This document shows positions 6,952 through 34,310 of a stretch of DNA of 64,000 nucleotides, piece after piece (the stretch's first letter is position 1; each line of letters opens with the position of its first letter). The DNA comes from an uncultured Candidatus Binatia bacterium (GTDB taxonomy: Bacteria > Desulfobacterota > Binatia > Bin18 > CBDCRK01), in contig CBDCRK010000011.1 of NCBI GenBank assembly GCA_965220955.1, positions 26,773-90,772 on the forward strand, written 5' to 3'. Under the pieces are notes generated by a model. The model worked only from the letters and a program-made list of their open reading frames with translations. It was not told where the DNA came from and ran no database searches. Both the position numbers and the translations under genes were made by a program.

Positions 6952-12645
<5,694 letters not shown>

Positions 12646-16513: not shown

Positions 16514-16933
16514 AATACACTTCAGACAACTTTCTCGGTGTCGTTTTGTACCGGCGGACAAGCCGCCAGTGGCACCTCTCTTCCTTCCGTTGCCCCACAG
16601 GTCCTCTGAGCCTGCAATAAGGACCCAGTTGCTCTCCTCAGCCGAGATTAGACAGAGGATGAGCTATGATGTCAATCTGAGGTGACAAGAAAGAATTCTG
16701 GCCTACCTAAGAAGGAGCGATGAGAGCGGGAATGGAAGCTTATCCCTGGCCGCACACTAGCGGCGGGAAAGTCTAATCCCAGCAACAACTGTCAAGGGAG
16801 AGAGGGACTTCTGCTGAAACCTATTTTCTTATACTCCGGGAAGGCGTAGGATGCCGTTACGCTGAGAAAAAGAAGAGACATGCCGTCTCCAGTTGACCCG
16901 GGGACGGCTCATTAACCTAAGGAGGGTCGCATT

Positions 16934-19675: not shown

Positions 19676-21604
19676 TTACTCTCGCGGCTGTGACCCCAGA
19701 TAGAAGAAGACTAGCGTGATCAGCACGGCAACAACGGTGAAGAAGGTGAGGAGATCATCGGGGAGGCCAAGCTTGAGCCGGGCAATGCCTATGCTGGCAA
19801 GCAGGGCAATGCCCACTCCCGTTAGCGCCTCGCCGGCAATGGCACCCGAGGCCAGGAGGACTCCGCGATGCAGGCGTGGTTCCCTTGCTTCCCGGCGGTT
19901 TCCTGTAGCTAAGATATAACCCAGGACCCCGCCCACTAAGATGGGCACGGACAGGCCAAAGGGCAGATACATGCCCACGGCAATTGGCATCAAGTAGGCA
20001 CGAAAAGAAATTTCTTGTGCCTCCAGAATCTTGTCTACAATCACCAGTACAACCCCAATGCCTGCACCTATGGCAACCATATCCCATGGTAGCTGGCCCT
20101 TACCAAAGAATCCTTGGGCCAGGCTGGCAAAGAGCTGTGCCTGGGGAGCCGCAAGCTCTTTGCCGCCAATACCTCCGGGAGTATTGTTGTGTAACAGCTG
20201 CAGTACTGGTGCCATTATCAAGGACGCCACGGCCACACCAGCAATCTGCATGATTTGCTGCCGCCGCGGTGAGGCGCCTACCAGCTGACCCGTTTTGAGA
20301 TCGTTACAAATGTCCCCAGAAGTACAGGCGGTGCAGCAGACAATGGCCGCAACTCCCAGTGCTGAGAGCATGCCCGCCTTACCGGTGAAGCCAAAAATCA
20401 GCAGTAGGGCACCAGTAAACAGCATAGCCGTGATAGTCATGCCCGAGACTGGGCTATTGGAGTTTCCTACCAATCCGACAATATAACTGGCCACCGCGGT
20501 GAAAAAGAATGCCATCACCAGCATGATTGCTGTGGCTGCTAGCGTCACCCCCAAATGTCCGGTGAGGATATAGTAGATGGCACCAACCAGTAGGGTGCAG
20601 AGTAAGGCAAGTAGAACAATCCAGGCGAAGGGAATGTCGGGGTCATCGACGGGCGCCGGTTGTGCCGGTTGTGCCGGTTGTGCCGGTTGTGCCGGTTGTG
20701 CCGGTTGTGATTGTTGGGAGCGGCTTGCACTTGTAAACAATTCTTGCAGCGCCTGGACAAGTCCGTGCCGGACCTGGATAATGGCTGCAATCCCACCTAC
20801 AACCATTGCGCCCACACCCATGTAACGCACCTGTTGGGACCAGATCTGGTAGGCACTCTCAACCGGATTGCTAAGTAATTCAGGATCGGCGCCCACAAGG
20901 GGAAGGGCGATCAGCCAGCTAAGCGCTCCGCCAATAAAAACCAGCAGGGCCACGTTGAGCCGGACAATAAGCCCCACGCCCAGCAGAGCCACCGAAATCT
21001 CTCCCCCAAAGTAGAAGATGCGGTGTCCGAGTACAATCGCGCCCTCCAGTACTCCTTGCAAGACACCCAAGAAGCTAACAAGAAATTTGCAGGCCAGACC
21101 AAACATAGCTCCCCGGACTACCAAGGAGGCCTCTTGGGGACCGGTCTGAGATTTTTCTCCCGCCTCTAACACCGCCGCGCAGGCTACGCCCTCGGGAAAC
21201 TTCAATTCTGGATTTGGGGCCACCACAAAGACACGCCGCATGGGGATCATTAACAGGACTCCCAACAGGCCCCCGGTGAAGGCCACCAGTGTTGTTAGCA
21301 GCATATCAAACTGCTGCCAGGCCCCGACTAGGACCAGGGCAGGCACGGTAAAAATGATCCCGGCTGCCAGTGATTCTCCCGCCGAGGCTGTCGTTTGCAC
21401 CTGGTTAGCCTCCAGGATAGTGCCGCTATTAAAGACCCCCCGCAGAATTAGCATGGCCAGGACCGCTGCCGGAATCGAGGCGGATACCGTCATCCCCACT
21501 TTTAGGCCCAGGTAGACATTGGCAGCCCCCATGACTACTGATAGCATTAGCCCCAGCAGCACTGCCCGTACTGTTAGCTCTCGCGTTATCTTTTGCTCTT
21601 CCAT
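19676..21604 (-). CDS. OPT-family oligopeptide transporter. Start at MEEQKIT; the longer track ORF is an upstream read-through
   Basis: Multi-TM OPT-family pattern. An internal (PAQ)6 insert is encoded by a 9-bp tandem repeat. Confidence 0.75.
   Translation of the reverse strand: MEEQKITRELTVRAVLLGLMLSVVMGAANVYLGLKVGMTVSASIPAAVLAMLILRGVFNSGTILEANQVQTTASAGESLAAGIIFTVPALVLVGAWQQFDMLLTTLVAFTGGLLGVLLMIPMRRVFVVAPNPELKFPEGVACAAVLEAGEKSQTGPQEASLVVRGAMFGLACKFLVSFLGVLQGVLEGAIVLGHRIFYFGGEISVALLGVGLIVRLNVALLVFIGGALSWLIALPLVGADPELLSNPVESAYQIWSQQVRYMGVGAMVVGGIAAIIQVRHGLVQALQELFTSASRSQQSQPAQPAQPAQPAQPAQPAPVDDPDIPFAWIVLLALLCTLLVGAIYYILTGHLGVTLAATAIMLVMAFFFTAVASYIVGLVGNSNSPVSGMTITAMLFTGALLLIFGFTGKAGMLSALGVAAIVCCTACTSGDICNDLKTGQLVGASPRRQQIMQIAGVAVASLIMAPVLQLLHNNTPGGIGGKELAAPQAQLFASLAQGFFGKGQLPWDMVAIGAGIGVVLVIVDKILEAQEISFRAYLMPIAVGMYLPFGLSVPILVGGVLGYILATGNRREAREPRLHRGVLLASGAIAGEALTGVGIALLASIGIARLKLGLPDDLLTFFTVVAVLITLVFFYLGSQPRE
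20655..20708. repeat. 9-bp tandem repeat (GCCGGTTGT x6) inside the OPT gene, encoding a PAQPAQ... loop
   Basis: Seen directly. Confidence 0.8.
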
Positions 21605-21635
21605 AGTGGTCTGCCATTGAGAGTTTTTACGAAAA

Positions 21636-21717
21636 CCTTTTTTCTCCCCCTTACCCTTACCCTTATAATCTGTCCCCTCCCCCGCAAGAGGGCGGGAGAA
21701 GGCTGGGGTGAAGGTTC
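21636..21717. repeat. Degenerate member of the GC-rich REP-like family (CCCCTCCCCCGCAAGAGGGCGGGAGAAGGCTGGGGTGAAGGT) in the OPT/hsdR divergent region
   Basis: Motif similarity to 3753-3796 and 18056-18155. Confidence 0.3.
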
Positions 21718-21950
21718 CAAAGCGCCTGACATTTATACACAACTCATGCTGGAGAGCTAGGGCTGCAGGGCGCATTGTATATTGAGCATCTGGCCGAATT
21801 GCAAGAAGCCCAAAACCAACACCAGGGGACGGATCAGGTGTTACGCACCCTGGTCGAGGGGACTGGGGGTTTTTGTTCCCAGCCGTTTCCTGGTAGATTG
21901 AGCAAGCGCATATTCTTTCTCTCACATCCGCCGCAAGGCGCTGAACCCAC

Positions 21951-24467
21951 ATGAACGAAGCCACCGCCCGTATCAAGATCAACAAACTGCTCGAAGCGGC
22001 CGGATGGCGTTTCTTTGCCGAAGGAGACAAACCCGCCAACATCTGCCTTGAACCAAGCGTCACCATCAAGGCGTCCGATCTCGACGCATTTGGTGACGAC
22101 TTCGATAAAACCGCCACGGGCTTCATCGACTTTCTCCTTCTCGACGCCAAGGGATTGCCGCTCATCGTTCTGGAGGCCAAGTCGGAGGACAAGAGTCCTC
22201 TGGTCGGCAAAGAGCAGGCCCGCAAGTACGCCCGCTCGCTGAACTGCCGTTTTGTCATTCTCTCGAACGGTAATCTGCACTACTTCTGGGATCTGGAACG
22301 CGGCAATCCCTACATCATCACCTCGTTCCCGACGCCCGACTCGGTGGACGGCTACCAAAAGATCACGCCCAACCCGCAGCGCCTGATCCATGAGCAGGTC
22401 GATGATGACTATATTATTCTCACCCAGCGGCCCGGCTATGCGTCCGAGGCGGCGTGGAAGAACGAAGACGAACGCCCCGGCTTCATCCAAGCCAACAGGT
22501 TACGCTTTCTGCGTCCCTATCAACTCAAGGCCATTCATGCCCTGCAACGCGCGGTACAGGACGGCAGCGACCGCTTTCTCTTCGAAATGGCGACCGGCAC
22601 GGGTAAGACACTCACCGCAGCCGCCGTCATCAAGCTGTTCCTGCGCTCGGGTAATTCCAGCCGTGTGCTCTTCCTGGTTGACCGGCTGGAATTGGAAGAT
22701 CAGGCCCACAAGGTTTTCAACACCCTGCTTTCGGCCGACTTCCAGACGGTCATCTATAAGGAGAGCCGCGACGACTGGCGACACGCCGAGATCGTTGTCA
22801 GTACCGTCCAATCTCTGCTGTTCAACAACAAGTACCAGCGGCTTTTCTCGCCTACGGATTTCGACTTGGTAATCTCCGACGAGGCGCACCGTTCGATTGG
22901 CGGCAACGCCCGCGCGGTGTTCGACTATTTCGTTGGCTACAAGCTTGGCCTGACCGCAACGCCCCGCGATTACTTAAGGGGCTTCGACCATACCAACCGC
23001 ACAACGGGGGACCTGCGCGAGGCCGAGCGGCGGCTGCTGCTGGACACCTACCGCACCTTCGGCTGCGAGAGCGGACAGCCGACCTTTCGCTACTCACTGC
23101 TCGACGGCGTAAAGGACGGCTTTCTGATCAACCCAACCGTGGTGGACGCGCGTACGGAAGTAACCACCGAACTCCTGTCCGAAGAGGGCTTTGTTGTGTT
23201 GTTCACAGACGACAGCGGCGAGGATAAGCAGGAAGCGTACAAGCAGCAGGAGTTCGAGAAACGCTTCTTTTCCGAAGCCACCAACCAACTGTTCTGCAAG
23301 ACCTTTCTTGAGAATGTGCTACGCGACCCGATCAGCGGCGAGGTCGGCAAGTCCATCATCTTTGCCGTCAGCCAGAACCACGCGGCCAAGCTGGCCCAGA
23401 CCCTCAATCAGATGGCCGACCGTATGTTTCCCGGCAAATACCAATCCGACTTCGCCGTACAGGTCACCTCGCAGATACCCGATGCCCAGCAGTTCACCAT
23501 TAACTTTGCCAATAACAACCTGCTCGGCTCGGGCAACTTCCTGCCCGACTACAAGACCAGCAAGGCTCGCATCTGCGTGACGGTCGGCATGATGACGACC
23601 GGCTACGACTGCACCGATATCCTGAATCTCGGCATGCTCCGGCCCATCTTCTCACCCACCGATTTCGTCCAGATCAAAGGACGCGGTACCCGCAGGCACA
23701 ACTTCCTCGACCAACTTTTCGACAACAACCTCAAGGAGGCCGTTGCCAAGCCGTGGAAAACCGCCTTCAAACTCTTCGATTTCTTTGGCAACTGTGAGTA
23801 CTTCGAGACCGAGTTCAACTACGACGAGGTCCTGAAGCTGCCCCGGCCTCGGGGTAAGGGTAGCGGCAACGGCCCTCAACTCTATGGAACCTACGAGCAT
23901 TTGGGGCGCGACATCCTTTCGATGGTCAAGGAAGAGACCATCGGCTACAAAGGAATGAAGATCGACCGAATGTTCTTTGAGAAGTTCGAGGATGCCGTAC
24001 GGAAAGACCAAATTATTGCCGAAGCCGTTATGGCTGGGCAGTGGGATCGGGTCATCGACTATGTCAACCGCGAAGTTTTCGACAAACCCGAGGAGTACTA
24101 TACCCTCGCCAAGCTGCGCCAAGCCGCCGCCGTGGACCGCCGCCTGACCCTGCGCGAGATTCTGGAGAAGGTCTTCGACCTCATTCCCCGCTTCAAGTCT
24201 AAGGACGAGTTACTGGAAGAAGAATTCGCCAAGTTTGTTGCCGACCACAAGCCCGAAGAGTTCGAGTCCATCCCAGCCCTCAAGACCTATTTCAAGGCTT
24301 ACGCCACCGACGGCTACACCCGCAACATCATCGATAAGCGGCAGTTCACCGACCTCGCAACGAATCCGGTCTTTTCCACCCGCGACTTCCGGGCTGTGCC
24401 AAAGAAATACCGCGCGCTTATTCCCGAGTATGTGAAAGACTATGTACCCCTCAACCAATTCGTCTGA
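21951..24467 (+). CDS. hsdR: Type I restriction enzyme R subunit (HsdR): N-terminal PD-(D/E)xK HSDR_N domain plus SF2 helicase
   Basis: HSDR_N (FIDFLLLD...LEAKSE), helicase motif I EMATGTGKT, DEAH box VISDEAHRS, motif VI QIKGRGTRR. Confidence 0.85.
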   Translation: MNEATARIKINKLLEAAGWRFFAEGDKPANICLEPSVTIKASDLDAFGDDFDKTATGFIDFLLLDAKGLPLIVLEAKSEDKSPLVGKEQARKYARSLNCRFVILSNGNLHYFWDLERGNPYIITSFPTPDSVDGYQKITPNPQRLIHEQVDDDYIILTQRPGYASEAAWKNEDERPGFIQANRLRFLRPYQLKAIHALQRAVQDGSDRFLFEMATGTGKTLTAAAVIKLFLRSGNSSRVLFLVDRLELEDQAHKVFNTLLSADFQTVIYKESRDDWRHAEIVVSTVQSLLFNNKYQRLFSPTDFDLVISDEAHRSIGGNARAVFDYFVGYKLGLTATPRDYLRGFDHTNRTTGDLREAERRLLLDTYRTFGCESGQPTFRYSLLDGVKDGFLINPTVVDARTEVTTELLSEEGFVVLFTDDSGEDKQEAYKQQEFEKRFFSEATNQLFCKTFLENVLRDPISGEVGKSIIFAVSQNHAAKLAQTLNQMADRMFPGKYQSDFAVQVTSQIPDAQQFTINFANNNLLGSGNFLPDYKTSKARICVTVGMMTTGYDCTDILNLGMLRPIFSPTDFVQIKGRGTRRHNFLDQLFDNNLKEAVAKPWKTAFKLFDFFGNCEYFETEFNYDEVLKLPRPRGKGSGNGPQLYGTYEHLGRDILSMVKEETIGYKGMKIDRMFFEKFEDAVRKDQIIAEAVMAGQWDRVIDYVNREVFDKPEEYYTLAKLRQAAAVDRRLTLREILEKVFDLIPRFKSKDELLEEEFAKFVADHKPEEFESIPALKTYFKAYATDGYTRNIIDKRQFTDLATNPVFSTRDFRAVPKKYRALIPEYVKDYVPLNQFV

Positions 24468-24498
24468 ACTGTGATTTGGGTGATTTAGTGATTAAGAG

Positions 24499-24927
24499 AT
24501 GATGAGGAAGGAGCAGAAGTATTCGGAATTGACCGGAAAGATCATCGGATGTGCCATGACGGTGCATTCTGCTCTGGGCAATGGTTTTCAGGAGGTGATG
24601 TATCAAAGAGCATTGGCAATCGAAATGGCGGATCAAGGTATTGCCTTCAGCCGTGAACATGAAATGCCCATTTATTACAAAGAGCAACAAGTAGGTACGA
24701 GACGGGTGGATTTTCTGGTAGACAATGTTGTCTGTGTGGAACTGAAGGCTGTTATCCACCTGGAAGACGTCCATCTGGCACAGGCCATCAATTATTTGGA
24801 GGCATACGATCTGGAGGTCGGGTTGCTCATCAATTTTGGCGCCAGAAGTCTTGAATTCAAAAGAGTGACCAACAAGAAGTTCAAGCAAAAGAATCAAGGC
24901 AATCCAAAAATCACAGTATATGCTTGA
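24499..24927 (+). CDS. GxxExxY protein (PD-(D/E)xK-like; commonly embedded in type I R-M loci)
   Basis: LGNGFQEVMYQRAL ... VDFLV ... VELKA signature of the GxxExxY family. Confidence 0.8.
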   Translation: MMRKEQKYSELTGKIIGCAMTVHSALGNGFQEVMYQRALAIEMADQGIAFSREHEMPIYYKEQQVGTRRVDFLVDNVVCVELKAVIHLEDVHLAQAINYLEAYDLEVGLLINFGARSLEFKRVTNKKFKQKNQGNPKITVYA

Positions 24928-26165
24928 CACCGCCACCAAACGCCGTATCGACACCGCCCGCGACATCCTTGTCGGCAAGGTGCCCGACCCCAAGAGCCAG
25001 GTCGAGCAGATCACCATCGCCCTGATCTACAAGTTCATGGACGACATTGACGCCGAGGCCGAAGAGCTGGGCGGCGAGCGCGCGTTCTTTGCTGGCGAGT
25101 TTGCCCGCTTTGGCTGGGCCAAGCTGATGCGCTCCGGCCTGGGCGGACACGAAACCCTGAACCTGTACGCCGAGGCTATTACCAGGATGCCGGAGAATCC
25201 CGGCATTGCGCCGCTGTTCCGTGACATCTTCAACAACGCCTATCTGCCGTATCGCGACCCCGAAACCCTGCGCGCCTTTCTCAAGATCATTGACGAGTTC
25301 ACCTACGATCACTCCGAACGCCTAGGGAGACGCCTTCGAATATCTCCTTTCTGTCCTCGGCTCGCAGGGCGACGCCGGGCAGTTCCGCACCCCGCGGCAC
25401 ATCATCGACTTTATTGTGGAAGTCATTGACCCGAAAAAGGACAACAGCGTGCTTGACCCGGCCTGCGGCACGGCCGGCTTCCTCATCTCGTCCTACAAGC
25501 ACATCCGCACGGCCAACACCGACGAGCACGGCCACAACACGCTCACGCCGGACGACCGGAGCCGCCTCGCCGCCAATTTCAAGGGTTACGATATCTCGCC
25601 CGACATGGTGCGCCTGTCGTTGGTGAACATGTATCTGCACGGTTTCGCCGCCCCGCACATCTACGAGTACGACACGCTCACCAGCGAGGACAAGTGGAAC
25701 GAGTACGCCGGCGTCATTCTGGCCAACCCGCCGTTCATGTCGCCCAAAGGCGGCATCCGGCCTCACAACCGCTTCTCCGTGCAGTCCAAACGCAGCGAGG
25801 TGCTATTCGTGGACTACATGGCCGAGCACCTGACGCCCAACGGTCGCGCTGGCATCATCGTACCCGAGGGCATCATCTTTCAGAGCCAGACCGCTTACAA
25901 GCAACTGCGCAAGATGTTGGTGGAGGAGTATCTTGTTGCCGTGGTGTCGCTGCCCGCAGGAGTGTTCCAGCCCTACTCCGGCGTCAAGACCTCGGTTTTG
26001 ATACTGGACAAGGCGCTAGCGAAGAAAACGGACTGCATCGCCTTTTTCAAGGTAGAGAACGACGGCTTCGACCTGGGCGCGCAACGCCGACCGATTGATA
26101 AGGACGACCTGCCGCAAGCCAGCGCCGAGATTGGTGAATACCTGCGCCGCCTGCGGGCAGGATCG
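24920..26165 (+). pseudogene. hsdM: Disrupted hsdM copy: about 96% nt identical to the 5' 1.25 kb of the intact hsdM-hsdS gene. Frameshift near 25324 and 3' truncation by a repeat element at about 26160
   Basis: Alignment by eye with 28143-29385. CGCCTAGGG versus CGCTTGGG gives a +1 frameshift. The reading frame ends in non-hsdM sequence after EYLRRLRAG. Confidence 0.7.
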
Positions 26166-26266
26166 GCGAATACCAGATTCGCCCCTACGCCCACTACGCA
26201 TTGTTGTGATAGGAAAGCGCAACCTTTCTCAAATTCTGATGTCCACTCAAGTGCAAACCGCTATAG
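26165..26266. repeat. About 100-bp repeat, copy 1 (GGCGAATACCAGATTCGCC ... GGAAAGCGCAACCTTTCTCAAATTCTGATGTCCACTCAAGTGCAAACCGCTATAG), replacing the 3' end of the hsdM copy
   Basis: Second copy at 34216-34310, about 90% identical. Shares the GGCGAAT-N5-ATTCGCC palindrome and the CCCCTAC motif with the 166-bp MITE, in opposite orientation. Confidence 0.5.
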
Positions 26267-26529
26267 TCAGAATTTTGTGATTACATCGCTAGAGCCGTAA
26301 CGGAGAGGCGACCTCAACCGGTTACAGCCCTCCTGCCAACCCTTTGGCCTGTTTGACGTTCTCAGGCGCGGGGGAATCCGGGACAATGGTGATATGGCTA
26401 CTCAAGTGCCTGAAAGAGTGTTGTTCAGCCAACATTCTGCTTGACCCATGATTACTGGAGGTGTATTCATCATTGATGTTTTAGAATCGTTATACTTGAC
26501 AACATTTTGGGAACAATTCATAGTTCGCT

Positions 26530-26823
26530 ATGCGGATCATCAGCAAGAAGAGGTTGCGGGAGTGTTGGGAGCGGCATGCGGACGCCGAGGAGCCGCTGCT
26601 TGCCTGGTATAGGGAGGTCGTGAAGGAGGAGTGGGAGACGCCGGTACAGATAAAGGAGAAATACCCGAATGCCCGCATTCTCGGTGACAGCCGGGTAGTC
26701 TTCAACATCAAGGGTAACCATTATCGGCTCGTGGCGAAAATCAACTATCCGGGACGCATTGTCTATGTCCGCTTTGTGGGAACACATGCCGAATATGACC
26801 TCGTGAATGTTCTGGAGGTGTAA
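26530..26823 (+). CDS. higB: HigB-family type II toxin (RelE/ParE superfamily mRNA interferase)
   Basis: NHYRLVAKINYPGRIVYVRFVGTHAEYD matches the HigB toxin pattern. The toxin gene precedes the HTH antitoxin, as in HigBA. Confidence 0.7.
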   Translation: MRIISKKRLRECWERHADAEEPLLAWYREVVKEEWETPVQIKEKYPNARILGDSRVVFNIKGNHYRLVAKINYPGRIVYVRFVGTHAEYDLVNVLEV

Positions 26824-26824
26824 G

Positions 26825-27418
26825 ATGGCCACTGGAAAGATCAAGCCGGTCCGGACCAAGCAGGATTATGAGGACGCGCTGGCTCGGATCGACGCATTAA
26901 TGGATGCGACGCCCGGCAGCCCGGAGTTCGATGAGCTCGACATCCTCGTCGATCTGGTTGAACTCTATGAGAGCAAGCACGAGCCGATGGGCTATCCGAG
27001 TCCGCTCGCCGCGATCGAGTTCCGCATGGAGCAGGGCAATTTGCGACCGCGTGACCTTATCCCCTTCATCGGGAGCCGGGCAAAGGTGTCCGAGGTGCTC
27101 TCCGGCAAGCGTGCCCTCACCATGCCGATGGCACGGGCGCTCCATAAGCATCTGGGTATTCCGGCGGATGTATTGCTGCGCGATCCGGATGTAGACCTGG
27201 ACGATTCGCTTGCCGACATCAATTGGAGTCGGTTTCCTGTCAAGGACATGGCGAAGCTGAGCTGGATTCGAGATGGTCTCAACCTGGCGGAGCACGCCGA
27301 GGCGATTATGCGCGATTTGATTGACCGGGCGGGGGGGGCCGGATGTCGCCTGTGCTGCCCTCTACCGGAAGAACGATCATATGCGTGCAAACGCCAAGGT
27401 GGACGCTTATGCCCTTAA
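26825..27418 (+). CDS. higA: HigA-like XRE-family HTH antitoxin. Probably the N-terminal part of a frameshifted HTH + ImmA/IrrE fusion
   Basis: HTH VSEVLSGKRALTMPMARALHKHLGIPADVLL. Overlaps the start of higB by 17 nt. The frame is lost at the G8 tract 27331-27338. Confidence 0.65.
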   Translation: MATGKIKPVRTKQDYEDALARIDALMDATPGSPEFDELDILVDLVELYESKHEPMGYPSPLAAIEFRMEQGNLRPRDLIPFIGSRAKVSEVLSGKRALTMPMARALHKHLGIPADVLLRDPDVDLDDSLADINWSRFPVKDMAKLSWIRDGLNLAEHAEAIMRDLIDRAGGAGCRLCCPLPEERSYACKRQGGRLCP

Positions 27419-28052
27419 GGCGTGGTGCTGGCAGGTTCTAGCGACGGGGAACGAGAACTCGCCAAAGACAGAGTACATACCTGGCACCGTGATGCCGCAC
27501 TTTCTCAGGGAGGTTGCGCAGTTGAGTTCGTTCGAAGACGGTCCGCGACTGGCCAGGGAGGTGCTGGCAAAACATGGCATCGCGCTAGTGAGCGTGCCGC
27601 ATCTGCCGAGGACCTACCTCGACGGAGCGGCGCTCCGGCTCAGGGATGGGCGGCCAGTGGTCGGGTTGACCCTGCGCTACGACCGGATCGACAATTTCTG
27701 GTTCTGCCTGTTGCACGAACTGGCACACGTGGGTCGCCACCTGGACAACAACCAGGGCAATGCCTTTGTCGATGACCAGACGTTACGTGGGGTGGAAGGC
27801 AGGCGGGAAGACCCGAGAGAGGTGCAGGCCGACGAATGGGCGACCGAGGCCCTCGTTCCTAGGGCGGCTTGGGAAGCGAGCGCGGCACGGGAGCGTCCGA
27901 CACCCATGGCGGTCATGAATCTGGCCCATGCACTGCAGGTCCATCCGGCGATCATCGCCGGCAAGATTCGATATGAGCACCAGAACTATCGGCTGCTGTC
28001 GCAGTTTGTGGGCACCGGCGAGGTCCGGCGGCAGCTTGGCATAATGGTGTGA
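27321..28052 (+). CDS. ImmA/IrrE-family (COG2856/DUF955) Zn metallopeptidase domain. TTG-initiated as drawn; more likely the C-terminal part of the HigA-like protein
   Basis: HEXXH motif LLHELAHVGRH. Joining to the upstream ORF needs a single G deletion in the G8 run. Confidence 0.65.
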   Translation: MTGRGGPDVACAALYRKNDHMRANAKVDAYALKAWCWQVLATGNENSPKTEYIPGTVMPHFLREVAQLSSFEDGPRLAREVLAKHGIALVSVPHLPRTYLDGAALRLRDGRPVVGLTLRYDRIDNFWFCLLHELAHVGRHLDNNQGNAFVDDQTLRGVEGRREDPREVQADEWATEALVPRAAWEASAARERPTPMAVMNLAHALQVHPAIIAGKIRYEHQNYRLLSQFVGTGEVRRQLGIMV

Positions 28053-28085
28053 GGTTGAGGTAAACGTGTCGATTACAGGCTCCGG

Positions 28086-28137
28086 TTAATCCTACAAATC
28101 CCAAAAATCACTTAATCCTACAAATCCCAAAAATCAC
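28086..28137. repeat. 26-bp tandem duplication (TTAATCCTACAAATCCCAAAAATCAC x2) immediately upstream of hsdM-hsdS
   Basis: Seen directly. The upstream hsdM copy carries a single copy of the AATCCAAAAATCAC-like unit. Confidence 0.6.
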
Positions 28138-28142
28138 AGTAT

Positions 28143-30614
28143 ATGCTTGACACCGCTACCAAACGCCGCATCGACACCGCCCGCGACATCCTCGTGGGCA
28201 AAGTCCCCGACCCCAAGAGCCAGGTCGAGCAGATCACCATTGCGCTGATCTACAAGTTCATGGACGACATTGACGCCGAGGCCGAAGAGCTGGGCGGCGA
28301 GCGCGCGTTCTTTGCTGGCGAGTTTGCCCGCTACGGTTGGGCCAAGCTGATGCGCTCCGGCCTGGGCGGACACGAAACCCTGAACCTGTACGCCGAGGCT
28401 ATTACCAGGATGCCGGAGAATCCCGGCATTGCGCCGCTGTTCCGTGACATCTTCAACAACGCCTATCTGCCCTACCGCGACCCCGAGACCCTACGCGCCT
28501 TTCTCAAGGTCATTGACGAGTTCACCTACGATCACTCCGAACGCTTGGGAGACGCCTTCGAATATCTCCTTTCTGTCCTCGGCTCGCAGGGTGACGCCGG
28601 GCAGTTCCGCACCCCGCGGCACATCATCGACTTTATTGTGGAAGTCATTGATCCGAAAAAGGACGATACCGTGCTTGACCCAGCTTGTGGCACCAGCGGG
28701 TTCCTGATCTCGTCCTACAAGCACATCCGCACGGCCAACACCGGCGGACACGGCCATGACACGCTGACGCCGGACGAGCGGGGCCGACTCGCCGCCAACT
28801 TCGAGGGCTACGACATCTCGCCCGACATGGTGCGCCTGTCGCTGGTGAACATGTATCTGCACGGCTTTGCCGCCCCGCACATCTACGAGTACGACACGCT
28901 CACCAGCGAGGACAAGTGGAACGAGTACGCCGATGTGATCCTGGCCAACCCGCCGTTCATGTCACCCAAAGGCGGTATCCGGCCCCACAACCGCTTCTCC
29001 GTGCAGTCCAAACGCAGCGAGGTACTATTCGTTGATTACATGGCCGAGCACCTGACGCCCACGGGCCGCGCCGGCATCATCGTACCCGAAGGCATCATCT
29101 TTCAGAGCCAGAACGCCTACAAGCAGCTGCGCAAAATGCTGGTCGAGGAGTTTCTTGTTGCCGTGGTCTCGCTGCCCGCAGGAGTGTTCCAGCCCTACTC
29201 CGGGGTCAAGACCTCGATTCTGATTCTCGACAAATCGCTGGCAAAGAAGACCAACCGTATCGCCTTCTTCAAGGTCGAACACGACGGCTACGACCTGGGC
29301 GCCCAGCGCCGGGCGATTGACAAAAACGACCTGCCGCAGGTACAAGCGGGACTCGCTGAATATCTGCGTCGGGTGCGGGCGGGCGAAGCACTAGGCGACT
29401 TCGAGCCGACGTATGGGCTCATCGTCGAGAAGGGGAAATTAGCCGCGAACGAGGAATACAACCTCAGCGGGGAGCGGTACAAGGAACGAGAAACCCAATA
29501 TCTCACAATCGACCCCAAATGGCCGATGGTGGCGTTGGGGGAGGTCATTCAAGATAAGCCGAGGAACGGATACTCTGGAAAACCTGTTCCCTATCCAACT
29601 GACCTAAAAGTTCTTTCGCTGAGTGCCACAACGTCAGGAACGCTGGACATCTCTCAGCACAAGTATCTCGACGAGAATATCTCTCTTGACTCACCGTGCC
29701 GATGCCGGCGGGGTGACATTTATCTTCAGCGTGGCAATACCAAAGAGTTGGTTGGCACCGCTGCGCTCTTCGACGTTGATGAATCAAACCTTGTTTATCC
29801 AGACCTCATGATTCGTGTGCGGGCGGATGAAGGGAAGATTACGAGTCAATTTCTCCTATGTGTTCTTCAGAGCGATTCCGTTCGAGAATACCTGACTCGG
29901 AACGCGGTCGGGTCGGCCGGAAGCATGCCGAAGATCAACCAAAAGATCGTTGAGCAGATTCCAATACCCCTCCCACCGCTGGAAGTGCAGCGGGAAATCG
30001 TGGCGGAGATAGAGGGCTACCAGAAGGTGATAGACGGCGCTCGGGCGGTGGTCGAAAATTATAGGCCGCATATCCCCATTGATCCCGCTTGGCCGCTGGT
30101 AGCGTTGGGGGAGGTGCTGACTCTGCAAAGGGGACACGACCTTCCAAAGAAAAATTTTGTTGAGGGCAAATATCCTGTTGTTGGTTCAAACGGTATTATT
30201 GGATACCACAATGAATTTAAGTATTCTGGTCCAGGCGTGGTTACTGGGAGAAGTGGAACAATTGGTAAAGTTTGTTTCATTAAAGAAAATTACTGGCCTC
30301 ATAATACCTCCCTATTTGTTAAGGATTTCAAAGGTAACAGCAAAAAATATATTTTCTTTTTACTTGAATCACTAGATTTAAGAAGCTTGGGAGAAAGAAC
30401 CTCCGCCGTTCCTTCACTTGATAGAAATAATGCGCATAGGCTAAATGTATATTTACCACCACTCGAAACCCAAACCCAAATTGTAGTCGAAATCGAGGCC
30501 GAGCAGTCCCTCGTCAGTGCCAACCGTGAACTGATCGAGCGTTTCGAGAAGAAGATTCAGGCTGCTATCTCCCGCATCTGGGGTGAAGATACGACAGGCT
30601 CTCCAGAAGCATAG
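28143..30614 (+). CDS. hsdM: Fused Type I R-M methyltransferase-specificity protein: HsdM N6-adenine MTase followed by two HsdS target-recognition domains
   Basis: HsdM_N domain, FRTPRHII, catalytic NPPF (LANPPFMSPKGG). C-terminal half has two TRDs, each followed by the conserved LPPLEVQ / LPPLETQ helical spacer. Confidence 0.85.
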   Translation: MLDTATKRRIDTARDILVGKVPDPKSQVEQITIALIYKFMDDIDAEAEELGGERAFFAGEFARYGWAKLMRSGLGGHETLNLYAEAITRMPENPGIAPLFRDIFNNAYLPYRDPETLRAFLKVIDEFTYDHSERLGDAFEYLLSVLGSQGDAGQFRTPRHIIDFIVEVIDPKKDDTVLDPACGTSGFLISSYKHIRTANTGGHGHDTLTPDERGRLAANFEGYDISPDMVRLSLVNMYLHGFAAPHIYEYDTLTSEDKWNEYADVILANPPFMSPKGGIRPHNRFSVQSKRSEVLFVDYMAEHLTPTGRAGIIVPEGIIFQSQNAYKQLRKMLVEEFLVAVVSLPAGVFQPYSGVKTSILILDKSLAKKTNRIAFFKVEHDGYDLGAQRRAIDKNDLPQVQAGLAEYLRRVRAGEALGDFEPTYGLIVEKGKLAANEEYNLSGERYKERETQYLTIDPKWPMVALGEVIQDKPRNGYSGKPVPYPTDLKVLSLSATTSGTLDISQHKYLDENISLDSPCRCRRGDIYLQRGNTKELVGTAALFDVDESNLVYPDLMIRVRADEGKITSQFLLCVLQSDSVREYLTRNAVGSAGSMPKINQKIVEQIPIPLPPLEVQREIVAEIEGYQKVIDGARAVVENYRPHIPIDPAWPLVALGEVLTLQRGHDLPKKNFVEGKYPVVGSNGIIGYHNEFKYSGPGVVTGRSGTIGKVCFIKENYWPHNTSLFVKDFKGNSKKYIFFLLESLDLRSLGERTSAVPSLDRNNAHRLNVYLPPLETQTQIVVEIEAEQSLVSANRELIERFEKKIQAAISRIWGEDTTGSPEA

Positions 30615-30675
30615 GACTTAACGGGAGCAATTGAATCTGGAACACCCAGCGTTCAACTGGTAAGGAGGACAAGAA

Positions 30676-31728
30676 ATGATTTTAGTTTTTGTAGGTGCGG
30701 GAGGCTCAGCCGCTGTTGATCCAGATCAGTATCCGACCACTGTCGAGTTCTTCAAGCGTCTTCCCAAGGAAATAACACAGCAACCCCTTTTCACCCTCGT
30801 CCGTGAATTCCTAATGACGCAGAAGGAGGATGGACAGCCTATCGATATTGAAGAAGTCCTGTGGAGCCTTGATAAACTTCAAGAGTATTTCTCGTTGTCC
30901 CGCGCTACCCATACTATAGAGGGATGGATCATGGCGAAGAATCGTCTTAACCAATTGGATGGCAACGCGCTTCCTGGAGGGAGTAACCCGCTTTTGGGAG
31001 GGATAGACAACATCAGCGTTAATCACTTAACACCGCTACGAGATAGCATCAATGCCAAGGTACATGAATTCTATGTGAAGCGTCCCGACGAGAACAAGTT
31101 GTCGGATTGGGTTAACCTCCTCCGGCATATCGAAGGGCTTGACCCGGTTATTGAGATTTTCACAACGAACTATGATCTGGTGCTGGAAACAGCCGTGAAT
31201 AGAGCCAAAATAAGGACGACAACAGGTCGAGAGTTCGATGGTTTGCATACGTTTTTGAATACCGCCCTCTGGGATGAACCCAGCGGACCCCCTAAGTATC
31301 ACGGACGGCTGACCAAACTACACGGGTCCATGGACTGGCAACGCAGAGGCAATACAATTCTTTGTAGCGACCTTTATACCGGAAACCCCCAACAACACTC
31401 AATCTTGTATCCAGGATTCAAAGGAGAGCCCAACGAGGAGCCCTTCATCAAATTCCATGAACATCTACGAGCTGTGGTACGCGAAGCAGGGGCAGCGTTT
31501 TTTATCGGTTTTGCCTTTCGCGACGACTATATTAACACAATCCTCTCTGGGCTCCGTCCGAAGACTCCCAAATACGTCATTGACAAAGAAGACTCACCTC
31601 CCGCTCTTGCTTTCCTAGATGGATGCAAGCATTTCAGCAATGGGCTTACGGTAGGGGCGATCCAGGACTGCATAAAAAGCCTAGCTGCCGTCATTTTTCA
31701 GGAGTTGAAACAACATTTAAAACCGTAG
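30676..31728 (+). CDS. SIR2-like (SIR2_2, PF13289-type) standalone 350-aa protein, a candidate NAD+-consuming defense effector
   Basis: N-terminal Rossmann GxG (ILVFVGAGGSAAVD), FTTNYDLVLE, KLHGSMDW and C-terminal FIGFAFRDDYIN motifs typical of the defense-associated SIR2_2 family. Stop is followed by hairpin 31729-31754. Confidence 0.7.
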   Translation: MILVFVGAGGSAAVDPDQYPTTVEFFKRLPKEITQQPLFTLVREFLMTQKEDGQPIDIEEVLWSLDKLQEYFSLSRATHTIEGWIMAKNRLNQLDGNALPGGSNPLLGGIDNISVNHLTPLRDSINAKVHEFYVKRPDENKLSDWVNLLRHIEGLDPVIEIFTTNYDLVLETAVNRAKIRTTTGREFDGLHTFLNTALWDEPSGPPKYHGRLTKLHGSMDWQRRGNTILCSDLYTGNPQQHSILYPGFKGEPNEEPFIKFHEHLRAVVREAGAAFFIGFAFRDDYINTILSGLRPKTPKYVIDKEDSPPALAFLDGCKHFSNGLTVGAIQDCIKSLAAVIFQELKQHLKP

Positions 31729-31754
31729 GTCGGGTTAGCGGAGCGTAACCCGAC
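31729..31754 (+). terminator. Stem-loop (GTCGGGTTA-GCGGAGCG-TAACCCGAC) immediately after the SIR2 stop; no U-tract
   Basis: 9-bp perfect stem seen in sequence. Confidence 0.3.
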
Positions 31755-31878
31755 AGCCGCCTCCTTCACCGTATGGAATGCGGCCGGTAGGTTCCGTGGT
31801 CGATAATGGGCATTGTTGGATATGGATTTTTTATTTACACTGTATCCAGTTCCAATTCTAGTCAAGGAGGTTTGGACC

Positions 31879-32082
31879 ATGGCCAGAGACACTTACAAAT
31901 ATCACTTCAAAAAGGGCAACAAGATTGTTCATACGGGCATAACCAACGATCTCGAATGGCGCGAGCAAGAGCACAAAGAGGCCTTTGGGGAAAGCGGCCA
32001 CATCAAGAAAGGTAGGTTACGTGACGACTCTCGACGCCGCCCGGAAATGGGAAAGCGAACAAGCAAAAAAGGGAAAGCCTAG
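31879..32082 (+). CDS. Short protein with a GIY-YIG-like N-terminal motif (YhbQ/UPF0213-like)
   Basis: YKYHF..GNKIVHTGITNDLEWREQEH resembles the GIY...YIG...R..EH core. Only 68 aa, so the C-terminal catalytic Glu region looks truncated. Confidence 0.3.
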   Translation: MARDTYKYHFKKGNKIVHTGITNDLEWREQEHKEAFGESGHIKKGRLRDDSRRRPEMGKRTSKKGKA

Positions 32083-32194
32083 CAGAAGGGGTTGATAAAG
32101 AATTAGTCAATATACATGCCTGACCCCTAAGTCTCTACAATCGGGAAACCGAATCGGCAGTCCTGATCACGACATATCGGCCCGACCCTGCACG

Positions 32195-32470
32195 GTGGGT
32201 CAACTGGCGTACAAGGAGGCAGAGATGATTCCATTCAATAAGTGCCCGGTGTGTAGTGGAGAAGTCGTTGCGAAGCAGACCGAAAAGCTCCTCCGTGGGG
32301 GTGTTAATTTCGCTACGGTGACCGTCCCTGCGGAAGTCTGTCTGCGCTGTGGAGAGCATCTGTACTCTCCCGAGACGATTCGTCTGTTCGAGCAAGTCCG
32401 CCGAAAGCTCAGCGCTCAAGACGTGGAAGGATTTGAACCCTTGGGAAGATCGTTCCGCATTCCGAACTAG
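32195..32470 (+). CDS. YgiT-type zinc-ribbon protein (MqsA-antitoxin-like N-domain), standalone
   Basis: CPVCSGE ... VCLRCGEHLYSPE paired CxxC motifs. Preceded by an AGGAGG RBS. Confidence 0.5.
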   Translation: MGQLAYKEAEMIPFNKCPVCSGEVVAKQTEKLLRGGVNFATVTVPAEVCLRCGEHLYSPETIRLFEQVRRKLSAQDVEGFEPLGRSFRIPN

Positions 32471-32479
32471 GGGTGGCGG

Positions 32480-32767
32480 GTGAAGAGGCTAAAGCGGAGA
32501 CGGAGGAGGCTAAAAGTTAGAGACGCGATAAAGCCCATGAGGAGAATCGCTGTGAAATACGCTATCCTCATCGAAAGAACCGACAACGGCTACTCCGCTT
32601 ATGCGCCCGATTTACCCGGTTGCATAGCCGCCGCAGACACAAAAATCGAAGTGGAAGAACTGATCCGCGAAGCTCTCAGCCTACATCTCGAATCACTCCG
32701 CGAACACGGCGACCCAATCCCCGAACCGCAAACTACCGCCACCCTGATTGAGGTCCCACCCGTTTAA
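32480..32767 (+). CDS. HicB-like antitoxin N-domain (UPF0150/DUF1902-like). Start probably at MRRIAVKYA (about 32537)
   Basis: KYAILIERTDNGYSAYAPDLPGCIAAADTKIEVEELIREALSLHLESLREHGDPIPEP matches the HicB N-terminal RNase-H-like fold pattern. No HicA partner found. Confidence 0.5.
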   Translation: MKRLKRRRRRLKVRDAIKPMRRIAVKYAILIERTDNGYSAYAPDLPGCIAAADTKIEVEELIREALSLHLESLREHGDPIPEPQTTATLIEVPPV

Positions 32768-32855
32768 GCGTTGCCGCCCAAAGTCCCAACTTTCATCCAC
32801 CACCGCCAGCAACCCGGCTAGGCCTCGTCACCAAAATCGGATCGACCCCGCCCGG

Positions 32856-32930
32856 GTCAATGCCAACCGCAAATTGATCGAGGGCTTCGAGAAGAAGATT
32901 CAGGATGTCATTGTTCCTAGCAGGGGATAA
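32856..32930 (+). pseudogene. hsdS: Orphan duplicate of the hsdS 3' terminus (encodes ANRKLIEGFEKKIQDVI). No TRD upstream
   Basis: About 80% nt identity to 30520-30580, the end of hsdM-hsdS (ANRELIERFEKKIQAAIS). Confidence 0.5.
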
Positions 32931-33014
32931 ATGCGTAAACGTCCCCGTCAAGTAGACGGGGTAAAACTAGAGCTTCCGGGACTTGTTCACGGAACGAGCG
33001 TAACCTACCTCCCC

Positions 33015-33980
33015 CTACTCCACGGTTTCGTATGCGGTCGGCAGGTTATCCGGCTGGTAGTCGTTCTTAGGATTGTCCCGGCGCTTGAATACGCCTTTGT
33101 GGATCTTCGCTCCTGCCGGGATCTTGCGGACCTCTTCGCCGCGAAAAATCCAGAAACCCGTAAACGACTGGTGCAACTTGTCATGTGGGTTGCCTACGCG
33201 ATCCGCAAGCCTATCCTCTTCTACCCGCATCCCGCACGCTACCGCCTTGCCGAGCATCCAATGCAAGGCGATGTTCGACAACCCGCGTTCGCTGTACCCG
33301 CCGCCTACGTCCGCATGGACGCCCGCGAACCAGACCTGCTCAAGGGTCTGATTCGTCCCTACCCTGCGCTCGTCCCAGAGAAAAGGCGGAAAATCGTTTC
33401 GCTTCTCGTCTATGGCCAGGGCGTGGAAGCCGTGGACAACCTCGGGGTTGAGCCGCGCGTCATGAAAACGCTTGCCCGCGTTCAGTGCCAACGACGCTAC
33501 GGTGTCCCACACGCCGATGAAGTGGACCGGACAGGCACGGCCGAACGTCTTGCGGAAGCCGCGCGCAAGGTCGGTGTTTTTGGGGGTGTTGTAAACCTTC
33601 GAGGCGTATTCGACAAGGTTCCCGGCGTCCGCGCGGAGCAGTCCGCATTTGTAAAGCATCCCGGCCAGCGAACGCACGGTGAACGCGCCACGGCTGAACC
33701 CGAACAGATACACGCGATCTCCGCTTTCGTAACAGCCCATCAGGTAGCGATAGGCGTCCTCGACGTTTTTCTGGAGCCCGTAGCCGGTCGCTTGGTCGGC
33801 CAGGGATGTCAGTTTTCCACTCTCTTCGTGGTATTCCCAGCCGCCCGTGCCTACGCCCGGGTCGTAGTACGCGACCTGGGACGCGTCTTTTACGGCCAGA
33901 TCGTAGGTTTCCACAACGTTCGTGTTGTTGCGTCCGTATTCGTTGCCGGTTCCGTCGCAGCAAACGACGATGTTCTTCAT
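33015..33980 (-). CDS. DUF2235 alpha/beta-hydrolase (T6SS Tle1 phospholipase-like catalytic domain) protein
   Basis: VVCCDGTGN, GxSxG-like LFGFSRGAFTVRSLAGM, GVWDTV and HADVGGGY motifs. The opposite-strand 355-aa ORF is antisense noise. Confidence 0.75.
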   Translation of the reverse strand: MKNIVVCCDGTGNEYGRNNTNVVETYDLAVKDASQVAYYDPGVGTGGWEYHEESGKLTSLADQATGYGLQKNVEDAYRYLMGCYESGDRVYLFGFSRGAFTVRSLAGMLYKCGLLRADAGNLVEYASKVYNTPKNTDLARGFRKTFGRACPVHFIGVWDTVASLALNAGKRFHDARLNPEVVHGFHALAIDEKRNDFPPFLWDERRVGTNQTLEQVWFAGVHADVGGGYSERGLSNIALHWMLGKAVACGMRVEEDRLADRVGNPHDKLHQSFTGFWIFRGEEVRKIPAGAKIHKGVFKRRDNPKNDYQPDNLPTAYETVE

Positions 33981-34139
33981 ACAATTCTCTTGGATTAGCA
34001 AGACTGTCGGATTGCGCTACGCTAATCCGACCTATGGGCTGCCGGTAGTCCATCTCGTATAGCGTGTTCTCAATGTCAAGACTACTATAATGCCGGCTTA
34101 TAGCATCTTTCATTTGGGTAGGCGTCTGTTGATGATCCT

Positions 34140-34310
34140 GCTCCCTGTTTTGTAGGGGCGATCCTGTCGGCCATCCTGGCCGCGTGATCGCCCACTGTGC
34201 AAGGTCGCGGGCGGGCCGGCGAATACGAGATTCGCCCCTACGCTTTGTGGTGATAGGAAAGCGCAACCTTTCTCAAATTCTGATGTCCACTCAAGTGCAA
34301 ACCGCTATAG
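34140..34310. repeat. Diverged, inverted relative of the 166-bp MITE fused to copy 2 of the 100-bp repeat (perfect GGCGAATACGAGATTCGCC palindrome at 34218-34236)
   Basis: The reverse complement reads ...GTAGGGGCGAATCTCGTATTCGCC...GGGCGATCAC...CGCCCCTACA..., matching the MITE motif order. 34216-34310 is about 90% identical to 26165-26266. Confidence 0.45.

Follow-up and report, generated by a model that had tools for sequence, protein, structure and literature searches.

We describe here a restriction-modification (R-M) locus in a stretch of 64,000 nt (hereafter the window) from an uncultured Candidatus Binatia bacterium (contig CBDCRK010000011.1). The locus is predicted to be a natural two-gene Type I-like R-M system, in which a separate HsdR works with an HsdM fused to HsdS (HsdM~S). 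In front of the intact fusion gene, hsdMS_B, stands a dead and truncated copy of hsdM, here called copy A, and between the two lies a cassette resembling the defence system PD-lambda-2. We consider it probable that the arrangement represents a working two-gene system together with the relic of a second hsdMS allele, left by one-sided or unequal recombination that stacked alleles and cassettes. The anatomy of the locus, its divergence pattern and its junction sequences were read directly from the DNA, as were the insertion hot spots and scars of the related loci. The window proteins were compared with the profile libraries Pfam, NCBIfam and PADLOC and with the structures in the PDB. The features on which the argument is built are the following.

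21951–24467, plus strand: hsdR, 838 aa
24499–24927, plus strand: GxxExxY (PD-(D/E)XK_3) gene, which fills the gap between hsdR and hsdM; its stop codon overlaps the hsdM start
24920–26162, plus strand: dead hsdM copy A, apparently codons 1–414 of a second hsdMS allele
26153–26266, plus strand: repeat X, at the 3′ breakpoint of copy A
26496–26524, plus strand: promoter-like site TTGACA-17-CATAGT, just 5′ of the HigB-like gene
26530–26823, plus strand: HigB-like gene, equivalent of PD-lambda-2 component A
26807–28052, plus strand: gene for an Xre helix-turn-helix (HTH) plus ImmA/IrrE (M78) peptidase, equivalent of PD-lambda-2 component B, in two frames
28086–28142, plus strand: 3′-tail relic of a second GxxExxY gene, containing a perfect 2 × 26-bp tandem (28086–28137); its left edge is junction J2
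28143–30614, plus strand: intact hsdM~S fusion (hsdMS_B), 823 aa
about 32800–32930, plus strand: orphan hsdS 3′-end relic, reading ...RVNANRKLIEGFEKKIQDVI...stop
34207–34310, plus strand: repeat X′, the second copy of X, 5′ of a vapBC-like pair

The hsdR and hsdM~S genes

The predicted working genes of the system are hsdR (21951–24467) and hsdMS_B (28143–30614). HsdR consists of an N-terminal nuclease region and a superfamily 2 (SF2) motor with its DEAH motif in the string ISDEAHRS. It matches the Pfam families ResIII (5e-37) and HSDR_N (4e-07), HSDR_N and HSDR_N_2 both being above cut-off, as well as PADLOC REase_I (3e-58) and the structure of a Type I R subunit (PDB 3h1t, 3e-32). Its match to the EcoAI/FtnUII R family of NCBIfam (NF046051, 1.8e-65) reaches 221.7 bits, below the cut-off of 550. 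The protein encoded by the next gene scores far above the thresholds for GxxExxY proteins (TIGR04256, 2.8e-41, 140.5 bits against a cut-off of 35; PF13366, 3.4e-39, 134 bits against 22). The initial annotation of this DNA had placed a GxxExxY gene behind an 838-aa hsdR, and the profiles confirm this for both genes.

The M and S parts of hsdMS_B form a single open reading frame (ORF) of 823 aa with no stop or frameshift, as they do in all 160 related loci described below. The M domain extends to about 29510 (PF02384 N6_Mtase, 6e-50, aa 133–451; PADLOC MTase_I, 2e-96, aa 3–457). It is a gamma-class N6-adenine methyltransferase of the HsdM type with an ANPPF motif, and its match to the NCBIfam hsdM family TIGR00497 (58.4 bits) is below the cut-off of 242.75. 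The specificity part matches Methylase_S in two stretches (about aa 459–631 and 650–781) and PADLOC Specificity_I (1e-51). It is ordered as a first target recognition domain (TRD1, about 29520–30030), a central conserved helix, a second domain (TRD2, about 30090–30486) and a C-terminal conserved helix, the latter being conserved across the related loci; an internal repeat links 29500–29545 with 30070–30115. The closest solved structures are those of separate M and S subunits, with the Type I M subunits 5ybb and 2okc as best PDB matches. The intact fusion first reported at 28143–30614 is thus confirmed, with an N6_Mtase domain and two Methylase_S stretches.

TRD2 had also been described as markedly richer in AT than the methyltransferase part. 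Its GC content is indeed 0.395 versus 0.60 for the M part, which is extreme even for the family. We asked whether low GC in the TRDs is a general property of the family, and this is partly true: TRD regions average 6–7 GC points under the M part. A drop of at least 20 points, as in the window, is reached by only 2% of the 159 members compared, and TRD2 is therefore unusual even among its relatives. Its AT-richness would fit import from an AT-rich donor.

Two other identities for the locus were considered and rejected. The region 20000–33000 has no inverted repeats, every hsd repeat being direct, and the genes between 21.9 and 36.4 kb yielded no recombinase domain; these features do not suit a phase-variable hsdS shufflon. 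As for membership in MADS, the matches to MAD2 and MAD5 are far below cut-off (101 bits versus 720).

Divergence of the dead hsdM copy from the live gene

Aligning 24900–26200 with 28100–29400, the comparison suggested with the initial annotation, gives a direct repeat in which 24904–26162 on the side of copy A corresponds to 28127–29385 on the side of copy B, the 5′ part of hsdMS_B. The repeat spans from 16 nt before the ATG through codon 414. As 1258 aligned nt are 91.0% identical, it cannot be due to chance. The alignment confirms the frameshifted and 3′-truncated copy that had been placed at 24920–26165, with its end now set at 26162. Identity declines along the repeat, from 96.4% in the first 500 nt to 90.8% in the next 500 nt and 81% in the last 258 nt. 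Thus, the identity of about 96% reported earlier holds for the first 500 nt and not for the repeat as a whole. The similarity had also been said to include an upstream leader. Only 16 nt are shared 5′ of the ATG, CCAAAAATCACAGTAT, and these are the end of a GxxExxY gene and not a promoter leader.

The only indel between the two copies is an extra A at 25324 in copy A, which shifts the frame at codon 135. When this A is removed, copy A is open for 414 codons with no in-frame stop; it is without the last ∼40 residues of the M domain. The copies differ at 113 nucleotides but in only 29 amino acids, corresponding to a synonymous divergence (dS) of 0.34 and a ratio of nonsynonymous to synonymous divergence (dN/dS) of 0.10. 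The dS rises from 0.16 over the first 480 nt to 0.49 over the remainder. A and B are each other's nearest relatives: they are 91% identical, whereas none of the 160 other loci exceeds 84%. From the dS, the dN/dS and the single lesion we infer that purifying selection acted on both copies during most of their divergence, and that A was disabled recently. A fragment truncated from the start would evolve neutrally; the pattern therefore points to two diverged alleles or paralogues, both functional for a long time. Copy A is accordingly best read as the relic of a second, long-functional hsdMS allele or paralogue and not as a fresh duplication.

This departs from the initial annotation, which had proposed a segmental duplication made in place: the first 1.25 kb of hsdM would have been duplicated recently upon insertion of the toxin-antitoxin (TA) cassette, the upstream copy then decaying. 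The two repeats stand in direct orientation at a distance of 3.2 kb and enclose the cassette, as such an event would leave them, and a duplication of this kind, 373 bp of hsdM at 99% identity, is found in one related locus (L011). However, the dS of 0.34 with a dN/dS of 0.10 means that most of the differences arose under purifying selection in both copies, which is impossible for a copy truncated from birth. Moreover, the tail of a different, foreign GxxExxY gene is found 5′ of copy B, and copy A stops at a microhomology with an unrelated repeat instead of at the end of the cassette. We therefore consider a recent duplication in place distinctly unlikely.

Junctions, repeats and relics

The 3′ end of copy A was located by comparison with other loci. 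Homology to their hsdM stops at 26161–26162 and homology to X′ begins at 26153. The overlap is the 10-mer GCGGGCGGGC, which is common to the equivalent position of hsdM_B and the left flank of X′. This junction, J1, is in all likelihood the signature of a microhomology-mediated deletion or an illegitimate join.

Repeat X is 104–114 nt long. The segment 26164–26266 is 96% identical to 34217–34310, and the BLAST match widens to 26153–26266 paired with 34207–34310. The two copies share a perfect core of 59 bp, where zero such matches are expected by chance. X begins with a hairpin, GGCGAAT-N5-ATTCGCC, of the repetitive extragenic palindromic (REP) type, which recurs at 3583–3606 and 13068–13091. 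In these places it is part of two 166-nt direct repeats (3536–3701 and 13021–13186, 96% identical) that hold the hairpin (GGCGAATACGAGATTCGCCCCTAC) in inverted orientation. As the hairpin recurs inside these repeats, X is a member of a REP-like family dispersed in this genome. In the metagenome scan no match was obtained for the 38-nt core of X. X was also considered as an RNA or an attachment (att) site. It was rejected as an identifiable RNA, since no tRNA, tmRNA or Rfam family was found in the window and the z-score of its fold is only −1.9.

The second junction, J2, lies at 28085/28086. The 57 bp between it and hsdMS_B match the GxxExxY gene tails of other loci, namely L015 (9960–10013, 84%) and L036 (9948–9993, 81%), both from Binatia metagenome-assembled genomes (MAGs); they do not match the tail of the GxxExxY gene at 24499–24927. 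Tails of the L015/L036 kind consist of short AATCC-type repeats, and the 26-bp tandem falls within this sequence. Degenerate tandem repeats of 7–11 nt (AATCC-, CCTTCGTGT- and ATCCTGT-type) were observed after GxxExxY genes, within the 100 bp that precede the hsdM start, in L002, L014, L015, L019, L025, L035, L036, L045 and L072, and a similar CCAGGCGTAAT array is present at 36950–37009 of the window. These short-repeat arrays may be recombination-prone sites; J2 sits in one of them.

The orphan segment at about 32800–32930 is 84–87% identical to 30508–30564 and aligns over up to 106 nt with the hsdS 3′ ends of many loci. It is predicted to be the end of an older hsdS.

Taken together, the region appears to read as two diverged versions of one unit in tandem. 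The first unit would consist of GxxExxY_A, hsdMS_A (of which the part between codon 414 and X is deleted), X and the PD-lambda-2-like module. The second would consist of the GxxExxY_B tail, hsdMS_B, cargo genes, X′ and the vapBC-like pair.

Two diverged versions placed end to end (GxxExxY-hsdM...X-TA and GxxExxY tail-hsdMS...X′-TA) is also what would be expected if two strain haplotypes of the metagenome had been concatenated in tandem during assembly, with the frameshifts as consensus errors. In line with this, J2 coincides with a perfect 26-bp tandem repeat, one of the frameshifts lies in the longest homopolymer of the window, and the closest relatives among the matches listed are all MAGs. 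However, the 10-nt microhomology at J1 is far too short to mislead an assembler, unique sequence connects every segment, and a chimeric join within the hsdM repeat would yield one hybrid copy and not two. The consensus is not error-ridden, as the other seven homopolymers of at least 7 nt leave their ORFs intact, and comparable scars are present in the independent closed chromosomes of L011 and L021. An assembly artefact is thus very improbable.

The cassette between the hsdM repeats

A toxin-antitoxin-like cassette is present between the long hsdM direct repeats (26530–28052), as first annotated. It had been named higB-higA/immA, of which the HigB-like gene holds (PF09907, 7.4e-31; PADLOC PD-Lambda-2_A, 5e-39, profile positions 1–96 of 97). 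What had been taken for higA/immA is one homologue of PD-Lambda-2_B, broken at a run of eight G (G8, 27331–27338). As assembled, it forms two overlapping ORFs that cover positions 3–171 (1e-52) and 176–396 (3e-82) of the profile. When one G is removed from the run, a 408-aa protein results, with a single match to positions 3–396 of the 402-position profile (3.6e-139). G8 is the longest homopolymer of the 64-kb window and the only one of its eight runs of at least 7 nt whose correction restores an ORF. The frameshift is either a real slippage or an isolated consensus error. Plasmid homologues of component B are single genes encoding about 390 aa beside HigB-family genes, and one of them (H6) is also annotated as two genes.

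The E. coli PD-lambda-2 system has three components, of which B alone is toxic, A neutralises B, and C is required for defence (PMC9519451). The cassette shares with it a HigB-like first gene and an Xre-HTH plus ImmA/IrrE second gene (Vassallo et al. 2022, PMC9519451). Unlike the E. coli system it is without the third gene, hsdMS starting 90 bp after B, and its B is split at G8. No ORF for component C was found between the end of B (28052) and the start of hsdMS (28143), other nearby ORFs not having been profiled against PD-Lambda-2_C. On these similarities the cassette would be better named a PD-lambda-2-like module than higBA. The promoter-like site just 5′ of the HigB-like gene agrees with 10 of 12 consensus positions. 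Two such sites are seen in the region versus 1.7 expected from shuffled sequences, and the site is only suggestive of a promoter.

Being flanked by 1.26-kb direct repeats, the cassette can be lost again by homologous recombination, and a crossover 5′ of 25324 would restore an intact hybrid hsdMS.

A widespread family of natural HsdR and HsdM~S pairs

To place the locus among its relatives we scanned contigs (one genome per species) and metagenomes with back-translated patterns of hsdMS_B. Relatives with the fused M~S were confirmed in at least 562 of 599 matched genome stretches and at least 540 of 600 matched metagenome stretches, which gives more than 1,100 among the matches listed, from many phyla. 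The combination of a fused HsdM-HsdS with a separate HsdR had been called uncommon, a view that these numbers contradict. Among the metagenome matches listed, no relative of hsdMS_B exceeds 62% identity.

The 160 related loci that we retained belong to Cyanobacteria, Latescibacterota, Binatia, Nitrospirota, Chloroflexota, Planctomycetota, Proteobacteria and further groups. All of them are matched over the whole length of the fusion, and hsdR is found 5′ of hsdMS in all that have room for it, except one. Protein identity to the window is 75–86% for the M part and 71–85% for HsdR, and only about 25–68% for the TRDs. TRD1 of the window is 63–68% identical to the second TRD of three loci (L040, L048 and L055), and 60% identity links its TRD2 with the first TRD of L065. 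These matches across positions indicate that TRDs have been exchanged between the two positions and between genomes.

Some members of the family show deviating forms. The module is present on plasmids, in an E. coli IncF plasmid (L162, NZ_CP116482.1, 3406–10954) and in the Paracoccus plasmid pPZ02 (L161, 3444–8577). The fusion on the IncF plasmid is shorter (677 aa), matches only the M part plus one TRD, and is followed by a TrlF-family AAA-like ATPase. In the Binatia MAG L015 the hsdR gene (9032–9523) is internally deleted, with about the first 159 and the last 41 codons left; GxxExxY and hsdMS are intact there, so that the restriction half has decayed and an orphan methylase remains.

The natural architecture seems little described. 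The Prokaryotic Genome Annotation Pipeline (PGAP) names the plasmid homologues only "DEAD/DEAH box helicase family protein" and "N-6 DNA methylase". In the literature searched (REBASE being outside the scope) we found no paper on a natural family of R plus M~S, and only engineered M-S fusions. The "hsdRMS" of Anabaena plasmid D was rejected as a precedent, as it is an R-M fusion with a separate S and hence another architecture.

An insertion slot between hsdR and hsdMS

Both the hsdR end and the hsdMS start are contained in 147 of the retained loci, and we used these for statistics on the gap between the two genes. The gap is at most 40 bp in 64 loci (mostly 14–19 bp), 41–300 bp in nine, and more than 300 bp in 74, with lengths up to 9.2 kb. 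ORFs in the larger gaps are mostly co-oriented with the hsd genes. In the first 80 loci, for which the gap cargo was counted, the most frequent genes are GxxExxY (11), Fic (9), KilA-N (7) and a 23S_rRNA_IVP four-helix bundle with a zinc ribbon (7). YhcG/DUF1016, DUF559, Zeta toxin, AbiEii, AAA_15, PIN-type pairs and one protein of 2101 aa are rarer. GxxExxY subfamilies that are only 31–44% identical to that of the window share the same slot. A search of all 160 loci, about 2.3 Mb of sequence, gave 14 GxxExxY matches, 11 of them in the slot between hsdR and hsdMS and three elsewhere.

The gap lengths also bear on a possible function of copy A as a source of free M subunits, which would provide the usual M2S1 stoichiometry. 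The purified EcoKI M-S fusion did need additional M to form an active restriction enzyme in vitro, but in vivo the fusion together with HsdR needed no extra hsdM (PMC3510504). Copy A itself goes out of frame at codon 135 and is missing the final ∼40 residues of the M domain. In addition, gaps of at most 40 bp in 64 of 147 loci, and a second hsdM in only a handful of 160, argue against a general need for it. We regard such a function as extremely improbable.

Scars like those of the window recur in the family. Orphan hsdS 3′ relics were found 0.1–7 kb from the gene in 11 of 81 sequences (the first 80 loci and the window), ten of them beyond an intact gene and one, in L010, upstream. The cargo between gene and relic consists of SIR2 plus a membrane protein in L019, DUF4917 in L065, AAA_15 plus DUF3226 in L023 and DUF3644 in L002. 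A locus from the metagenome set (L082) has the same pattern of gene, cargo and relic with a radical-SAM pair. The SIR2 gene of L019 is 53% identical to that of the window and occupies the same position. Of an L019-type hsdS–SIR2 junction, L025 has kept the relic, the spacer and 35 codons from the start of SIR2, a remnant structure which indicates nested turnover, the locus having been overwritten at least twice.

Two closed long-read chromosomes carry comparable structures. In L011 the order is hsdR, Fic, hsdM codons 1–121 (99% identical to the live copy), three more genes and hsdMS, and the hsdM fragment directly abuts the last 21 codons of an hsdR. The Latescibacterota chromosome L021 combines a single hsdR with two hsdMS, the M parts of which show 94% identity and a dN/dS of 0.13. 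Its second hsdMS (15203–17383) is cut in the central helix and runs in frame into a sequence that we judged by eye to be TIR-like (FMSYSWDDDQHKEWV...), which would be another defence gene joined at a scar.

These results support the initial view of the locus as a landing pad for defence cassettes: 74 of 147 gaps exceed 300 bp and hold cassettes, 11 of 81 sequences have hsdS relics, and the SIR2 gene recurs in L019. A more far-reaching idea is that hsdR plus hsdM~S is a portable docking platform for defence cargo between phyla. The conserved ends would act as homology arms, small nuclease-fold genes (GxxExxY, YhcG and DUF559) may home into the 14–19-bp junction, and the dead hsdM, the relics and the GxxExxY tail would be footprints of this process. 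We put this forward as a tentative idea that is rather unlikely in this full form.

Cassettes might likewise enter by an active, site-directed route, with small PD-(D/E)XK or Vsr-like nucleases (GxxExxY, YhcG, DUF559) that home, or with an unrecognised site-specific recombinase, the partial duplications being by-products of repair. The same 14–19-bp junction is occupied in half of the loci, GxxExxY subfamilies that are 31–44% identical to each other use one slot which holds 11 of the 14 matches, and several gap genes have a nuclease fold, all of which would be expected from such a route. However, no integrase or transposase is present in or beside the island, no conserved repeat flanks the cassettes, and many genes of the gaps encode proteins other than nucleases (Fic, KilA-N, Zeta, AbiEii). 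The closest GxxExxY genes furthermore show the same degree of divergence as the hsdR and hsdM that flank them (about 84% nucleotide identity each), which fits co-inheritance better than independent homing. We consider active entry unlikely.

Proposed history of the locus

The order of events and the recombination pathway, like the enzymatic activity of the proteins, are inferred from comparison of the sequences. The conserved hsdR and hsdM, with 71–86% protein identity across phyla, would serve as homology anchors. An incoming or sister copy of the locus, from a related strain or the sister chromosome, would recombine at one homologous end, and the other end would be joined illegitimately or unequally, which would place two locus versions and their cargo in tandem. 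This is the state seen in L021. One hsdMS would then decay by deletion and point lesions, which is the state of the window. In copy A the decay would have comprised a microhomology-mediated deletion from after codon 414 to the REP-like repeat and a +1 frameshift, leaving the PD-lambda-2-like module between 1.26-kb direct repeats.

Several points weigh against this history. X is dispersed, so that the two sites at which it occurs are not necessarily equivalent positions of the two units. The contrast in dS along the repeat may result from conversion of one tandem copy by the other or from a recombination breakpoint. Copy A as a transferred allele and copy A as an old, long-functional tandem paralogue fit the data alike, and both frameshifts (at 25324 and in the G8 run) could be sequencing errors. 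There is also no close relative of the window locus: the best M~S match among the matches listed is 62–64% identical, and exact-protein look-ups found no record of the hsdMS_B and HigB-like proteins. The ancestral arrangement and the order of events are consequently reconstructed and not observed.

The surrounding island

The locus is part of a block of defence and toxin-antitoxin genes of about 14.5 kb, mainly on the plus strand. It is bordered on the left by an OPT transporter gene on the minus strand that ends near 21.6 kb, and on the right housekeeping-type genes resume at 36.4 kb. Beyond hsdMS_B, the block contains the following genes.

30676–31728, plus strand: SIR2-like gene, directly 3′ of hsdMS (PF13289 SIR2_2, 7e-13; PADLOC SIR2, 1e-23)
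32195–32470, plus strand: YgiT-type zinc-finger gene (TIGR03831, 7e-09)
32480–32767, plus strand: HicB-like antitoxin gene (PF15919, 1.5e-11)
33015–34001, minus strand: Tle1-like phospholipase-domain gene (PF09994, 1.5e-75)
34478–35172: Phd-like/PIN (vapBC-like) pair (PIN, 4e-16; Phd/YefM, 8e-05, 22.7 bits, under the Pfam cut-off of 29.8 bits)

The YgiT/HicB pair is 96% and 89% identical at the nucleotide level to the same pair 3′ of hsdMS in the Binatia MAG L015. The Tle1-like gene is a conserved downstream neighbour in related Binatia loci, with 79% amino acid identity in L003 and a truncated copy in L035. The end of SIR2 and the region around the start of the Tle1-like gene share an inverted match of 34 bp (31723–31805 and 34004–34037). 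A relic of a Tle1 gene after SIR2 was considered and rejected; a trace of a 14-aa C-terminus at 31764–31805 together with the 34-bp inverted match is too weak to be used. In the segment 34478–36397 the Phd-like/PIN pair is followed by a minus-strand DUF4325 (STAS-like) gene and a second, stand-alone PIN gene.

Two tandem arrays were seen outside the block. In the minus-strand OPT transporter gene, about seven tandem GCCGGTTGT units at 20646–20717 encode a linker of QPA repeats; the array appears as six overlapping 27-nt matches with 9-nt spacing. At 42404–42535 there are five to six tandem copies of a ∼22-nt unit, AGCGTGCGCCATACGCACGAAT, with an internal palindrome.

Comparison with known systems

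By sequence the system is nearest to classical Type I enzymes, with the EcoAI/FtnUII (Type IB) R family as the closest. It shares with them the R subunit with nuclease and SF2/DEAH motor, the gamma-class N6-adenine methyltransferase with NPPF, and two TRDs between conserved helices that are exchanged between loci and between the two positions. Classical Type I enzymes have three separate subunits (R2M2S1), whereas here M and S are one polypeptide from one ORF, which gives two genes instead of three and one M per two TRDs instead of two. The scores against curated Type I equivalogs are, moreover, far under cut-off (222 versus 550 bits for R, 58 versus 243 for hsdM).

An HsdM fused in frame to a two-TRD HsdS, with a separate HsdR, is also the design of the engineered "Type IMS" fusions. 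Both the EcoKI MSFusion (Roberts et al. 2012, PMC3510504) and the MSfus of S. aureus CC398-1 (Bower et al. 2018, PMC6158711) restrict and modify with HsdR, and in vivo the fused gene and hsdR were enough for restriction. These two fusions were engineered from three-gene systems, whereas that of the window belongs to a natural, widespread family. The two-gene Type IMS, built in the laboratory as a hypothetical evolutionary intermediate, thus exists in nature and is very widespread under generic annotations only.

A methyltransferase covalently joined to a specificity module is likewise found in Type IIB/IIG (AloI, CjeI) and Type ISP (LlaGI) enzymes. In these the nuclease is fused as well, and in ISP also the motor, while IIB enzymes are without an ATP motor; here the nuclease and motor form a separate 838-aa protein. 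AloI and CjeI also have one M per two TRDs, which is unexplained (PMC3874165). The puzzle of stoichiometry that this poses, namely how both half-sites are methylated, could be studied here on a separable system.

For the genome of the window, the structure suggests that one restriction specificity was lost recently and that the PD-lambda-2-like module is in an unstable, repeat-flanked position. Across the family, the sharply defined cassette slot and the datable scars make the locus a tractable model for the growth of defence islands by stacking and decay of alleles. Defence systems are reportedly embedded in a Type I operon of the V. cholerae pathogenicity island VPI-2 as well. A further case is prrC, which sits inside the EcoprrI Type I operon (PMC3874165). 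As in the window, unrelated defence or abortive-infection genes lie between the hsd genes in these cases and are co-oriented with them. Unlike there, a single conserved junction of a two-gene module is used here, filled in half of 147 loci from many phyla with more than 10 unrelated gene families, and the turnover has left dated scars in the form of the dead hsdM, the hsdS 3′ relics and the GxxExxY tail.

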